Source: an uncultured Chloroflexia bacterium
GTDB lineage: Bacteria > Chloroflexota > Dormibacteria > Aeolococcales > Aeolococcaceae
Length of the DNA stretch: 64,000 bases
Assembly: GCA_963793875.1 (NCBI GenBank)
Contig: CAWCBS010000014.1
Span: 90,088 to 154,087 of the forward strand
Direction of reading: 5' to 3'
Position numbers and translations under genes: made by a program. Below the pieces are notes generated by a model. It saw only the letters and a list, made by a program, of their open reading frames with translations, was not told where the DNA came from and made no database searches. Of the stretch, positions 26,998 through 40,242 are shown piece after piece. How positions within the stretch are numbered: position 1 is the stretch's first letter; every line of letters begins with the position of its first letter.

Positions 26998-27359
26998 GCC
27001 CGCGGCCGTGGCTCCGCGCGGAGCGGCCGCGGTGGCGGCGGGTTGAGGATGCCGCGTCACCCAGCGACGAGCGTGCGCCGGCCCCGGTCGATGGCTCCTG
27101 GTCGCCCTGGCCTGGCCGGCGGCGATACTGGGCCGCTGCTTTCACGTGGCGCTGCAACCGCCGCCGTCCCCAACTTCACCCACCATCGGCTGGGGCCGGG
27201 TGCGGCGGCCGCGTCCGTGGCCCGGTACAATGGGTCACGGTCGCGCTAGACGGGGAGCCAGCGGTGCCCTGTACCCGCAATCCGCTATAGCGGGGTCGAA
27301 TTCCCCACCGAGGGGGCGCGTCGCCGGGTCCGCTCCGACCTCTCCGGTGTTGATGGTTG

Positions 27360-27464
27360 GGTCCTGCGCAGCCCGGGCCCGTGAACCGCGTCAGGTCCGG
27401 AAGGAAGCAGCGCTAAGCGGTCCCCCGGGGGTGCCGCAGTCAACCTGGCCTGAGCCGGGGGACC
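27360..27464 (+). ncRNA. ffs: Signal recognition particle RNA (small 4.5S-type)
   Basis: Exact match to the conserved helix-8 motif GUCAGGUCCGGAAGGAAGCAGC at 27391-27412. Terminal pairing ggtcc…ggacc. It lies upstream of dnaX-ybaB-recR, the usual neighbourhood. The ends are approximate. Confidence 0.7.
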
Positions 27465-27654
27465 GGGTGAGCGCCGGTGCCGTGCCAACGACGTGGGGTG
27501 CGCGACTACTCCCCCTCCCGGGGCGGTGGGAGGCCACCCCCGCGGGCGGCCACAACCGGGCACCTTCGACCCGGCCGATCCGCTCACCGGTGGTCGCGCG
27601 GTTGCCGCCGCCGCCTCCGCCCGGCCGCCCGCCCCGCCAGGACGGGCCGGCCGA

Positions 27655-31451: not shown

Positions 31452-31543
31452 CGCGAAGGCCCTGGGACCGGCGCTCTGCGCCGGATTCCACGCAGGCCTC
31501 GTCAACGTTCGAATTTGACCCGCGCAAGCGGGTGAGAACGTTT

Positions 31544-33049
<1,506 letters not shown>

Positions 33050-33430: not shown

Positions 33431-33505
33431 GGGCCTTTAGCTCAGGTGGTAAGAGCGCACGGCTGATAACCGTGAGGTCTGTGGTTCGAAGTCCACAAAG
33501 GCCCA
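33431..33505 (+). tRNA. tRNA-Ile (GAT)
   Basis: Cloverleaf sequence GGGCCTTTAGCTCAGGTGG… with anticodon loop cTGATAAcc. Located in the 16S-23S spacer. Confidence 0.85.
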
Positions 33506-33527
33506 CGCTCGGGTCTGACCACCAGCC

Positions 33528-33601
33528 GGGGATGTAGCTCAGCTGGGAGAGCACCTGCTTTGCACGCAGGGGGTCGGGAGTTCGAAGTCTCCCCATCTCC
33601 A
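33528..33601 (+). tRNA. tRNA-Ala (TGC)
   Basis: GGGGATGTAGCTCAGCTGGGAGAGC…cTTTGCAcg… with the G3·U70 identity pair. CCA is not encoded. Confidence 0.85.
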
Positions 33602-34379
33602 GGGATGAGCTGCGCTCCGCCTCCACTCTTGATTCTCGCGGCCGCACCAGCGGCGGCAACCCCGCTCCTTCATACGTGAATACAAGTCTGCGAATGATCT
33701 TCGTCACCGCCGTACTTCAGCGGTGGTGGCGAGACGGATCCTCTTTGTAATACATGTCAGGTGAACACAAACGCGCGCGACCCCGGCCCCAGGGCCGAGG
33801 TCGATCCCTTCCTCTCATCCCCGGCGTGGCCGTGGATGAGCGCTGAAAAGTGTGAATAGGAAGGTCAAGCTGATAAGGGCGCACGGTGGATGCCTTGGCA
33901 CCAAGGGCCGAAGAAGGACGTAGCGTTGCTGCGATAAGCCTCGGGTAGCTGCTAGCGAGCGTTAATCCGGGGATTTCCGAATGGGGCAACCCACCTGGAG
34001 TCATGTCCAGGTACTCCCGGTTGAATATATAGGCCGGGTAGAGGGCACGCGGAGAACTGAAACATCTAAGTATCCGCAGGAGAAGATAACATCCCCTTAG
34101 TAGTGGCGAGCGAAAAGGGGTGAGCCTAAACCGAGACGGCGTGATAGCCGGCAGGCGTTTCCGTCTCGGGGTCGTGGGACCCTCATGCTCCGCTGCCGTG
34201 GAGCGCAGGAGTTACCAAGTCGTCGCCTAGCTGAACAGTTTTGGAACAGCTGGCCGTAGAAGGTGAGAGCCCTGTACGCGAAAGGCGGACGACCTCCTGG
34301 AGGTGTTCCCAAGTACCACGGAACACGTGGAATTCTGTGGGAATCTGGGCGGACCATCGTCCAAGGCTAAATACCCTTG

Positions 34380-34421
<42 letters not shown>

Positions 34422-35051
34422 CACCCCGGAAGGGGAGTCAAAAGTCCCTGAAACCGTGCGCTTACAAGCCGTGAGAGGGCTATGCCCGTATGGGAATGCC
34501 TGATTGCGTGCCTTTTGTAGAATGAGCCGACGAGTTACTTCAGTGTGGCGAGGTTAAGGGGTAGACACCCGGAGCCGTAGCGAAAGCGAGTCTGAATAGG
34601 GCGTTGTCGCCGCAAGGCGATGGTAGTCGCACTGAGTAGACCCGAAACCGAGTGACCTATCCATGGTCAGGGTGAAGCGCGGGTAAAACCGCGTGGAAGC
34701 CCGAACCGACCCCAGTTGAAAATGCGGCGGATGAACTGTGGATAGCGGTGAAATGCCAATCGAACTCGGATATAGCTGGTTCTCCTCGAAATGCATTTAG
34801 GTGCAGCGTCGTCAACGGGTCTGTCGTAGGTAGAGCACTGAATGGGCTAGGGGCGATCACCTCGTTACCAAACCCAATCAAACTCCGAATGGCGGCAGAT
34901 TTTCTGGCGGCAGTGAGACAGTGGGGGCTAAGCTTCATTGTCGAAAGGGAAACAGCCCAGACCACCGGCTAAGGTCCCCAATCGCAAGCTAAGTGGTAAA
35001 GGATGTCACGATGTCCAGACAACCAGGATGTTGGCTTAGAAGCAGCCACCA

Positions 35052-35082
<31 letters not shown>

Positions 35083-35847
35083 ATGTCATGGCGCCGACAA
35101 TGATCGGGGCTCAAGCTTGCAACCGAAGCCGTGGATGACCCTCCTTCTGGGAGGGTCGTGGTAGAGGAGCGTTCTGTGGGCAGAGAAGCCCGACCGGAAG
35201 GACGGGTGGAGCGTACAGAAGTGAGAATGTCGGCACAAGTAGCGAGAAACGCGTGAGAAACGTGTTCGCCGTAAACCTAAGGTTTCCTGGGCAACGTTAC
35301 TCGTCCCAGGGTCAGTCGGGACCTAAGCCAAGGCCGAAAGGCGTAGGCGATGGACAGTTGGTCAACATTCCAACACCGCCAAAGACAATTCAAGGCGGCG
35401 GGGGACGGGGAAGGATAGGCCTTACGGAGCGATGGTTGACTCCGACGCAGCCAGGTAGGGGGTCGCCGATGAAAGTTGGCGGCAACTCCGAGACGGATGC
35501 CAAGGCACCTAGTGCTGATGGGGCCGATTCCATGCCTCCAAGAAAAGCCCGTACCGCTGGTCTAGGCGCCCGTACCGCAAACCGACACAGGTAGGTAGGA
35601 AGAGGATTCCAAGGCGATCGAGGGAAACGTGGCTAAGGAACTCGGCAAAATTTCCCCGTAACTTCGGGAGAAGGGGAGCCCTTGACGGTGATCGGCCTCG
35701 CGCCGTGAGCTGATGAGGGCCGCAGAGAAAAGGCCCATCCGACTGTTTACTAAAAACACAGGTCTCTGCTAAAGCGTAAGCTGATGTATAGGGGCTGACG
35801 CCTGCCCGGTGCCGGAAGGTTAAGTGGAGGGGTGCAAGCTCTGAAAT

Positions 35848-35891
<44 letters not shown>

Positions 35892-36601
35892 GGAATCGCT
35901 GCCTTAGTAAAATCTGGCTATATGCTGGAACACCCGTGGATCCCGCACTACTAGGCCGAACCGACGTTTGGTATAGTGACAATGTGACGGGTGCGGACAA
36001 TCAGCAGGAAAGGCTCATCGAGCTGGGTTGGGTACTCGGCTTTGTGGACGGAGAAGGTTGCTTCTCCCTCAGCCTGGTGCGGCAGGTAGGCCGCGCTGGG
36101 CGAGTAGGCTACAGGTCGGGGTACCAGATCTTTCATGAGTTCGCAGTGACGCAGGGCGAGAGGAGCATCACGTGCCTCTACCGACTTCGCGAATACTTCG
36201 GAGTCGGATCGGTGATTGTGAACCGACGGTATGACAACCATCGGGAGTGCGTTCATCGGTATGTGGTTCGGCGACGAGACGATCTGGAGGCGGTGATCAT
36301 TCCGTTCTTCAGGGAATACCCGTTGCGGACTGCGAGACGTGAGGACTTCGAGAAGTTCGCGACGTGCGTGGCGATGATGTCGTGTGGACACCACCGCACG
36401 CCGTCCGGATTTGGTGAAGTGATCGGCATTGCGGAGACGATGAACAGACGCAAACCTAGAACAACCATTGGTGAGAATCCTCAGAGGCCATACGCCAGAC
36501 ACCCGGACGGCCCGAGTGAAGATATGGTCCCGTCTGCATGGCGACATGCAGGAGAGGTGCCGGCTCACGGCACCTCCGCCTGGGATACCAGGTAAGAGCA
36601 G
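35892..36601 (+). mobile_element. Group I intron in 23S rRNA at position L1931 (E. coli numbering), 710 nt, encoding a LAGLIDADG homing endonuclease
   Basis: The upstream exon ends …CCUAAGGU and the downstream exon resumes AGCGAAAUUCC, so the exon is restored perfectly when the insert is removed. A 7-bp P1 forms between exon ccuaaggu and the intron internal guide sequence gccttag at 35901-35907, with a U·G pair at the splice site. The last intron nucleotide is G. A P-like element (attgcggaga), Q-like (aatcctcag), R-like (cagacac) and S-like (aagatatggtcc) occur in canonical order at 36427-36530. A P9-like 9-bp hairpin lies at 36556-36578. Confidence 0.75.
35936..36595 (+). CDS. Single-motif LAGLIDADG homing endonuclease (I-CeuI-like family) encoded inside the L1931 intron
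   Basis: LIELGWVLGFVDGEGCFSLSL is a LAGLIDADG motif. The downstream VIIPFFREYPL…DFEKF… segment resembles the I-CeuI family. The protein is 219 aa and the start codon is GTG. The region has 'ttt', 'att' and 'aga' codons and ~55% GC, unlike the host. The C-terminal ~55 codons overlap the intron core elements. Confidence 0.8.
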   Translation: MDPALLGRTDVWYSDNVTGADNQQERLIELGWVLGFVDGEGCFSLSLVRQVGRAGRVGYRSGYQIFHEFAVTQGERSITCLYRLREYFGVGSVIVNRRYDNHRECVHRYVVRRRDDLEAVIIPFFREYPLRTARREDFEKFATCVAMMSCGHHRTPSGFGEVIGIAETMNRRKPRTTIGENPQRPYARHPDGPSEDMVPSAWRHAGEVPAHGTSAWDTR

Positions 36602-36621
36602 AGCGAAATTCCTTGTCGGGT

Positions 36622-36870
36622 AAGTGAAACGAGCCCGTACCGGCTAATATCGGTGAAGCCCTACTGGTAGGCGTGCGGCCGCCAGGGGTGATACCGAGGG
36701 AAGTCACCTCCACTGAGGAGGTTGACCCTGTATCGACTGAGGCCCTAGTGCCAAGGGTTGGTGGAAGTGCGCAATCCGCGCACAATCTAGCCGCCAGCCA
36801 AGACGCCGGTGACTTCCGTGGCGGGAGTCAAAGTTATAGTCAGTGCTACCAGTGATGGTGGATAACCATG
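36622..36870 (+). mobile_element. ORF-less group I intron in 23S rRNA at position L1951 (E. coli numbering), 249 nt
   Basis: The exon reads …CUUGUCGGGU | intron | AAGUUCCGACC, and the exon is restored when the insert is removed. The internal guide sequence gcccg at intron positions 12-16 pairs with exon cgggu (U·G at the splice site). The intron ends in G. A P4/P6-like hairpin gtgcgcAATCCgcgcac contains a Q-like element. An R-like element is tcgactga and an S-like element is aagttatagtcagt. Confidence 0.75.
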
Positions 36871-37149
36871 AAGTTCCGACCCGCACGAATGGCGTAACGA
36901 GATGGGCGCTGTCTCGGCCACGTACTCGGCGAAACTGAAGTACCTGTGAAGATACAGGTTACCCGCAGCAGGACGGAAAGACCCCGTGGAGCTTTACTAC
37001 AACCTGCCACTGAGATGGGGTCTAGCATATAGAGGATAGCTGGGAGACGGTGAAGCGTGGTCGCTAGATTGCGTGGAGTCAACCTTGGAATACCAGCTTT
37101 GCTAGACTTTATTTCTAACCGGGACCGTGATCCGGTTTCGGGACCGTGG

Positions 37150-37182
<33 letters not shown>

Positions 37183-37340
37183 CAAAAGGTAACGGAGGCG
37201 CCCAAAGGTTCCCTCAGCCTGGATGGAAATCAGGCCTAGAGAGTGTAATGGCACAAGGGAGCTTGACTGTGAGGCCTACAAGCCGAGCAGGGACGAAAGT
37301 CGGGCATAGTGATCCGACGGCTCTGAATGGAAAGGCCGTC

Positions 37341-37377
<37 letters not shown>

Positions 37378-37407
37378 GATCTTGCCCAAGAGTTCACATC
37401 GACGGCA

Positions 37408-37449
<42 letters not shown>

Positions 37450-37455
37450 GAGTAT

Positions 37456-37490
<35 letters not shown>

Positions 37491-37966
37491 TACGCGAGCT
37501 GGGTTTAGAACGTCGTGAGACAGTTCGGATCGTATCCGCTGTGGGCGCAGGAGATTTGAGGGGAGCTGACCTTAGTACGAGAGGACCGGGTTGGACGGAC
37601 CGCTGGTGCACCGGTTGTTCTGCCAAGAGCACCGCCGGGTAGCTATGTCCGGATGGGATAAGCGCTGAAAGCATCTAAGTGCGAAGCCCACCCCAAGATA
37701 AGATCTCCCACCGGATTAACCGGGTAAGACCCCAGCAAGACTAGCTGGTTGATAGGCCGCAGGTGTAAGGGGGGCAACCCCTTGAGCTGAGCGGTACTAA
37801 TCGGTCGAGGGCTTGACCTTTCTATCCCACACTCTTCAGCGCAGTGCAGGGCGGCGACCCGCGGGTCGCCGGCGCGATCGTTGTTCGCCCGACATGAAGT
37901 GGGTCCGGAGCCGCGCGTGGCTCTCAGACGCAGACTTGGTTCCTTCTTACGAAAGAAAGGAGATAT

Positions 37967-40155: not shown

Positions 40156-40242
40156 GCCGAGGTGGTGGAATAGGTAGACACGCTAGCTTGAGGGGCTAGT
40201 GAGCGCAAGCTCGTAGGGGTTCGAGTCCCCTCCTCGGCACCA
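40156..40242 (+). tRNA. tRNA-Leu (GAG) with a long variable arm; CCA encoded
   Basis: Acceptor gccgagg / cctcggc. Anticodon stem ctagc / gctag with loop tTGAGGg. 16-nt variable arm. The sequence ends …GGCACCA. Confidence 0.85.

Follow-up and report, generated by a model that had tools for sequence, protein, structure and literature searches.

Reading frames that run from a peripheral loop of a group I intron into its catalytic core have been described for the cyanobacterial introns at L1917, L1931 and L2593, and the idea that such sequence is under a dual constraint was stated together with that description (Haugen 2007, PMC1995217). An account of how such overlaps arise, termed "core creep," is set out in the excerpted portions of Edgell, Chalamcharla & Belfort (2011, PMC3073962): once an ORF has entered a loop, its frame lengthens up to whichever in-frame stop comes next within the core, which predicts extensions of variable length, alternative start codons and longer extensions in GC-richer introns. 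Table 1 of that article, in the same excerpts, gives an overlap of 81 nt (P6/P7/P3/P8/P9.0/P9) for the LAGLIDADG frame in the LSU intron of Synechococcus lividus. With respect to the enzymes themselves, I-ShaI of the candidate phyla radiation (CPR), encoded at site 23IS7, cleaves its own insertion site as a homodimer of approximately 174 aa (Tsurumaki et al. 2024, PMC11270868), and by our reading of the site list in that article 23IS7 is position 1931. A further LAGLIDADG endonuclease, I-TnaI, has been placed in a 23S intron by a review, and the L1931 intron of Simkania has been reported as unspliced, to judge from a title cited in PMC11270868. The overlap of ORF and core in bacterial L1917, L1931 and L2593 introns and its likely origin are therefore already published; the locus described here is a new and extreme case.

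The window, which is to say the whole stretch of 64,000 nt that was analyzed, is a bacterial segment of ~72% GC (71.7%) with one rRNA operon, whose features are collected in the table below. Alignment to an LSU model reveals two inserts in the H69-H71 region of the 23S gene, one of 713 nt and one of 250 nt. The 5' exon ends ...CCUAAGGU at U1931, the insertion follows, and the exon picks up again at AGCGAAAUUCC. Read directly, the 5' exon and the internal guide would form a P1 with a U35891.G35901 wobble at the 5' splice site, and UCGCU (35896-35900) would pair with AGCGA of the 3' exon (36602-36606) as P10. A second group I intron lies a short exon further downstream; it is without an ORF and has no Rfam match even at E<=10. 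At the same site, 12 related loci carry a homologous insertion of 280-950 nt that shares conserved blocks with it, and the copy in the window is the shortest of this family.

Table. Features of the rRNA operon, its L1931 intron and the intron ORF, in positions of the window
Feature	Position	Strand	Remarks
Large SRP RNA	27241-27505		178.5 bits
16S rRNA	31543-33049		
Two spacer tRNAs, 16S-23S	33431-33601		
23S rRNA	33863-37820		About 1 kb too long
5S rRNA			Downstream of 23S in the operon
tRNA	40156-40239		3' of 5S
Group I intron at L1931	35892-36601	+	710 nt; exon junctions read; canonical terminal G36601
P1 (putative)	35885-35907	+	Exon CUAAGGU (35885-35891) with guide GCCUUAG (35901-35907), by direct reading
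P3 5' strand, UCUGGC	35913-35918	+	Upstream of ORF; partner 36494-36499
P4 5' strand, element P, UGCUGG	35923-35928	+	In 44-nt leader; partner 36001-36006
P5	35934-35936 / 35994-35996	+	Middle pair CG to UA in 12/45 sequences
Longest ORF	35936-36595	+	219 aa; GTG start, TAA stop 36593-36595; 93% of intron
P5a	35942-35948 / 35984-35991	+	Double changes in 7/7 pairs
P5 extension, variable	35949-35983	+	
Alternative GTG start, V17	35984-35986	+	203-aa product; within P5a 3' strand
P4 3' strand, element Q, UCAGCA	36001-36006	+	In codons 22-24
P6 5' strand	36007-36009	+	
P6a 5' strand	36014-36019	+	
L6 loop	36020-36469	+	450 nt; body of LAGLIDADG domain, residues ~29-178
P6a 3' strand, GGUGAG	36470-36475	+	ORF tail begins
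P6 3' strand	36478-36480	+	
J6/7	from 36481	+	
P7 5' strand, element R	36486-36492	+	
P3 3' strand	36494-36499	+	
P8	36501-36506 / 36512-36517	+	
J8/7	36518-36522	+	
P7 3' strand, element S	36523-36529	+	
P9 hairpin, CUGCAUG-GCGA-CAUGCAG	36534-36551	+	Near-invariant GNRA loop
P9.1	36554-36562 / 36568-36576	+	Single-sequence fold; inside ORF
P9.2	36579-36583 / 36588-36592	+	GAUA loop; single-sequence fold; inside ORF
Exon between introns	36602-36621	+	20 nt; 23S positions 1932-1951
Second intron, group I, ORF-less	36622-36870	+	249 nt; after U1951; ends G36870

Comparative evidence comes from 80 related loci, fetched with A[DE]NQQERL, where the protein family is best conserved, as the search pattern. 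Fifty-six of these carry an insertion at exactly the L1931 site, giving 57 introns with that of the window, and their hosts belong to the soil Actinomycetota, Chloroflexota, Gemmatimonadota, Gammaproteobacteria and the CPR. The nearest sampled intron, L016, comes from a Chloroflexota MAG, has a broken ORF and is 81% identical; the nearest of ~3,900 protein homologs reach 62-66% identity. Exon identities, unreliable for host placement on account of free end gaps, were used solely to establish L016 as the nearest. The endonuclease ORF is interrupted in eight of the 57 introns (L016, L021, L030, L032, L035, L039, L054 and L074) while the ribozyme parts are conserved, and such interruption fits a homing cycle of gain, decay and loss. 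With boundaries set by the exon, 30 of the 57 lack a terminal G (A 17, C 8, T 5; L001, L002, L005, L007 and L010 are examples), and sliding the boundary yields no terminal G in 22 of these 30; the intron of the window is canonical in this respect. Such ends may reflect a terminal nucleotide other than the canonical one, as reported for a Coxiella intron, or introns that do not splice.

The two halves of the split ribozyme, 35892-36019 on the 5' side and 36470-36601 on the 3' side, flank the 450-nt P6 loop, and the group I core from P3 to P9, including the P3/P7 pseudoknot, is supported by covariation. Among the 57 introns, P3 is paired in 99.1% of cells and shows three covarying pairs (UA/GC/CG, CG/UA and UA/CG), and P6a is paired in 90.6%, with CG/UA/GC/AU exchanges. 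Taken together, P7, P8 and P9 are paired in 94.5% of cells; the corresponding figures are 78% for shuffles and 28-44% for slid partners, and none of 500 shuffles equals the real pairing. Double changes occur in 15 of the 20 pairs of these three helices and amount to 200 double-change cells vs. 58 in shuffles. By helix, P7 is paired in 90% of cells, P8 in 94.7% with all six pairs covarying, and P9 in 99% with double changes in six of seven pairs. P4 is invariant except for G.U/G-C exchange, and the inner pairs of P6 are likewise invariant; both are compatible with pairing but, being invariant, are uninformative as to covariation. Covariation across homologs, by which the earlier note on this DNA proposed to judge the core helices, is accordingly present in P3, P5/P5a, P6a, P7, P8 and P9. 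At the 3' end, the three hairpins P9, P9.1 and P9.2 are predicted by folding to fill 36534-36592 (MFE -41.1 kcal/mol, z = -5.4); the P9.1-P9.2 sequence is not conserved (identity 0.24-0.29) and is absent from some relatives. Between the guide and P3, most relatives (L001-L015 and others) carry an extra P2-like hairpin of 20-60 nt, some with a further insert, and P1 leads straight to P3 in the window (35892-35912), L016, L058, L065 and L074.

Rfam Intron_gpI (RF00028) has no match in the window at the gathering threshold (50 bits) and one weak match at an E-value threshold (24.1 bits, E 0.0012). The 3' half of this match sets J6/7, P7, P3', P8, J8/7 and the terminal hairpin on 36480-36551, and its 5' half is misplaced in the ORF body, which we attribute to the real 5' half lying 450 nt upstream. 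Two other placements were discarded. A hand-built model with UUUGGUG at ~36410 as the P3 5' strand and CCGCAC/GUGCGG as P5 was replaced by the pairings that covariation supports, and a helix in which RNAalifold, run on the 5' half alone, engaged the P3 5' strand (columns 8-11 paired to 139-143) was rejected as spurious because that strand covaries with 36494-36499. The earlier note had assigned the P, Q, R and S elements and P9 to the last ~55 codons of the ORF. Rfam, covariation and folding agree that R, S, P3', P8 and P9 are in the tail; P, however, is in the leader and Q is near the 5' end of the frame, and the 3' core, which starts at 36470, occupies the last 42 codons.

The ORF begins 44 nt into the intron and leaves 6 nt after its stop, exactly as first described. 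It matches Pfam LAGLIDADG_1 (PF00961) with 62.2 bits, against a curated cut-off of 23.1, over residues 34-144, and carries a single LAGLIDADG motif, LGFVDGEG at residues 34-41 (GFVDGEG at 35-41), that is invariant in the family alignment and whose helix has an acidic catalytic residue at its end. Sequence matches in the PDB, whether obtained with the single sequence or with the family profile, span residues 21-173 and reach no further. The AlphaFold model is confident for residues 40-172, with low pLDDT for the LAGLIDADG helix itself in this monomer model; the order of elements is alpha-beta-beta-alpha-beta-beta-alpha, and I-TnaI, I-OnuI and I-SmaMI are the top Foldseek matches. The LAGLIDADG domain is made up of residues ~27-172 and fills the P6 loop, uninterrupted and with all family-invariant residues retained, including GFVDGEG. 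Its last helix is still coded by 36420-36469, and the domain ends ~15 nt before the P6 3' strand. Where the earlier note had credited ~165 residues with endonuclease character, the homology to endonucleases of known structure extends to residue ~171-174. The label "I-CeuI-like" is not exact: among solved structures I-TnaI is the nearest relative, the 60 best PDB matches listed do not include I-CeuI by name, and the site of I-CeuI is L1923, as opposed to L1931 for the element in the window.

GTG 35936 is not a conserved start: of the 57 introns, that of the window alone has a start codon in frame at this offset. At the aligned position of GTG 35984, an in-frame start codon is found in 22 of the 57, and in L005 it is the sole possible start. 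From this comparison of sequences, the real product is probably a protein of 203 aa that begins at GTG 35984, with its start codon inside a helix. Neither candidate start, GTG 35936 or GTG 35984, has a Shine-Dalgarno-like sequence upstream.

Considered together, it is very probable that the element is a mobile L1931 group I intron with a single-motif LAGLIDADG gene in its P6 loop, and that the overlap of gene and core is an instance of core creep. The ribozyme, ~260 nt in two halves, would fold around the 450-nt loop and self-splice from the pre-rRNA, for which P1 with its U1931.G, a canonical P10 and the terminal G36601 would provide the splicing features. The intron RNA would double as the message for the endonuclease, a homodimer of which would cut intron-less 23S genes at L1931 such that the intron is copied in; within the window there is no intron-less target site of this kind. 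Because no stop codon follows the domain, the frame runs on through P6', J6/7, P7, P3', P8, P9, P9.1 and P9.2 to a TAA that falls just short of the 3' exon. Upstream of the domain it likewise stays open, back through P6, the P4 3' strand and P5/P5a, the last of these being a stretch (35934-35996) that overlaps ORF codons 1-21. The chance of 46 extra open codons at the GC of the intron is estimated at roughly 20%, and the length of the overlap is therefore not statistically remarkable in itself.

The manner in which the overlapping segments vary indicates which constraint they are under. Scored by codon position, identity to the window amounts to 0.60/0.68/0.39 in the domain, a normal coding signature, and 0.76/0.72/0.72 in the conserved part of the tail (36470-36551), where there is no relaxation of the third position. 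Across the 49 introns with an intact ORF, the near-invariant segment AAUCCUCAGAGNCNAUACGCC reads RILRDHTP in 31, ESSEAIRQ in 15 and NPQRPYA in three, including the window. The tail of the window is out of frame with its closest homologs for ~17 codons, at about 36460-36510, and then returns to frame; L049 uses the same tail frame. Stops in the 49 intact ORFs are scattered from 5 to 48 codons past ..MNR, some in J8/7 and some at the last nucleotide of the intron, one ORF has no stop inside its intron, and the longest read-through is that of the window. The last 53 residues alone find no PDB match at E<=10, and residues 173-219 are predicted to be disordered (AlphaFold pLDDT 31-41). At the other end of the domain, 36001-36019 codes for the family-invariant peptide NQQERLI, and ADNQQERL is coded by the P5 3' strand, the P4 3' strand (element Q) and the P6 5' strand (35984-36016); the invariance of A[DE]NQQERL is an RNA signal and not a protein signal. 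These observations support the view, raised as a possibility for the final residues in the earlier note, that the C-terminal ~46 residues (173-219) are translated RNA structure and not a protein domain. The two-layer constraint proposed alongside it is not supported for the tail, in which we found no sign of protein-level selection and the RNA layer alone is visible. In light of the codon-position profile, the three frames, the scattered stops, the RNA-coded ADNQQERL and the unconserved start, we conclude that RNA function is what maintains the overlap, with the tail peptide a by-product that is tolerated and probably disordered.

Were the overlap instead a case of true dual coding, the tail would be functional under a selection of its own, either as a maturase-like RNA-binding extension or as one that makes additional contacts to DNA. 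The tail is indeed basic and Pro-rich, and the closest protein homologs (P0001-P0007) retain 218-222 aa and a conserved ..SGEDMVPSAWRHAG tail, in which protein-level selection could be at work, yet this conserved tail coincides with J8/7-P7'-P9. Such a function is difficult to reconcile with a core segment for which family members use three different frames, with stops that are scattered, with a frame displaced in the window relative to those very homologs, or with a tail that shows no third-position relaxation, is predicted to be disordered and is without a PDB homolog; moreover, about 174 aa suffice for activity in I-ShaI (PMC11270868). The LAGLIDADG protein encoded in the 23S intron of Thermotoga neapolitana is nonetheless credited by a review with a maturase-like activity (PMC3984707), and on that account we keep a small probability for a functional tail, regarding dual coding as very improbable. 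It is harder still to credit that the overlap serves as a switch, in which ribosomes proceeding from the P5a start through P4, P6, P7, P3 and P9 would unfold the ribozyme and render endonuclease synthesis and splicing mutually exclusive on each RNA, or that the basic tail binds its own RNA as a maturase peptide. If either were true, the window would be the best test case, as it has the longest read-through in the sampled family.

Two further readings concern the history of the element rather than its tail. Recent import of a selfish element, marked by low GC and rare codons, is conceivable but rather doubtful. The earlier note had estimated intron GC at ~55%, some 15-17 points below the host, and took this contrast for a compositional signature of import. 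Measured GC is 57.9% for the intron and 58.5% for the ORF, with 56.8% for the 23S exons, 57.9% for the 16S gene and ~73% for the non-rRNA flanks, which leaves no contrast with the host 23S gene. To our knowledge, the GC of a high-GC genome always exceeds that of its rRNA genes by a wide margin. As the intron equals the rRNA exons in GC, the gap of 14-16 points is ordinary for rRNA genes and no mark of import, and across the family intron GC roughly tracks the rRNA GC of the host (0.29-0.36 in CPR hosts, 0.55-0.62 in high-GC hosts). What survives of the signature is codon usage: GC3 in the ORF body is 0.69 vs. ~0.87 in host open frames, and AGA, TTT and ATT are much more frequent than in the host, which is weak evidence compatible with a foreign or mobile history and gives no timing. 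The distribution of the family over four bacterial groups and the CPR likewise speaks for import; the nearest sampled intron and proteins are too distant to show that it was recent, and no recent donor is in sight. The converse proposition, that the element is decaying and its endonuclease gene becoming a pseudogene, would explain the odd tail frame as an early lesion that was compensated by chance. The interrupted ORFs of the eight relatives, which include the most similar intron, the departure of the window tail from the family-consensus frame and the lack of an intron-less target within the window are in keeping with decay. We nevertheless judge it improbable, as the domain is uninterrupted with every family-invariant residue in place, and the frame shift is confined to a part that is dispensable in relatives. 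The tail frame of the window also recurs in L049.

Core creep of a mobile intron, the reading we prefer, brings little new biology. The value of the family lies in a clean natural experiment, in that its members translate a single ribozyme segment in three different frames, and this supports such overlaps as passive "core creep" and not as a finely tuned form of dual coding. Two practical warnings come with it: the "protein motifs" that are best conserved in this endonuclease family, ADNQQERL and RILRDHTPD, are RNA core elements, and a comparison of the GC of an rRNA intron with genomic GC misleads.

Among known systems, the introns of Haugen 2007 (PMC1995217) share with that of the window the L1931 site, the size class (654-700 nt vs. 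710 nt here) and the endonuclease family, and P2 is missing here as it is in their L1917 and L1931 introns. The endonucleases annotated in that work measure 143-167 aa, whereas the frame in the window has 219 aa (203 from the likely start), takes up 93% of the intron and reaches P9.2; their hosts are cyanobacterial, whereas ours is a bacterium of ~72% GC whose nearest relative, for both rRNA and intron, is a Chloroflexota MAG. I-TnaI (PDB 5gkk, Thermotoga) matches best by structure and strongly by sequence (E 4.8e-24, 36-37% identity, TM 0.74-0.75 on the target) and shares the single-domain LAGLIDADG fold, with a match that covers residues 31-174 of the window protein and nothing of residues 175-219. 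I-ShaI, to judge by its description, is likewise a single-domain LAGLIDADG_1 protein in a group I-like insertion of ~690 nt, and the relatives of the window ORF include CPR members; its ORF lies at positions 83-604 of the 691-nt insertion and stops 87 nt before the end. The I-TevI gene of the phage T4 td intron resembles the window in that a P6 loop houses the ORF, the 3' end of which forms part of P6a and P7, but it differs in encoding a GIY-YIG enzyme, in an overlap of only 20 nt and in a protein-coding host gene, as given in the excerpts of PMC3073962. With respect to the core creep model in those excerpts, the predicted variable extensions and alternative starts are both present in the family of the window, and extension length shows a weak trend with intron GC in the sampled family (Spearman rho 0.25, p 0.09). 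The overlap in the window, 126 nt at the 3' end and 36-84 nt at the 5' end, compares with the 81 nt listed there for Synechococcus lividus, and the reading of one conserved core segment in three frames within a single family is additional to the evidence that those excerpts present.
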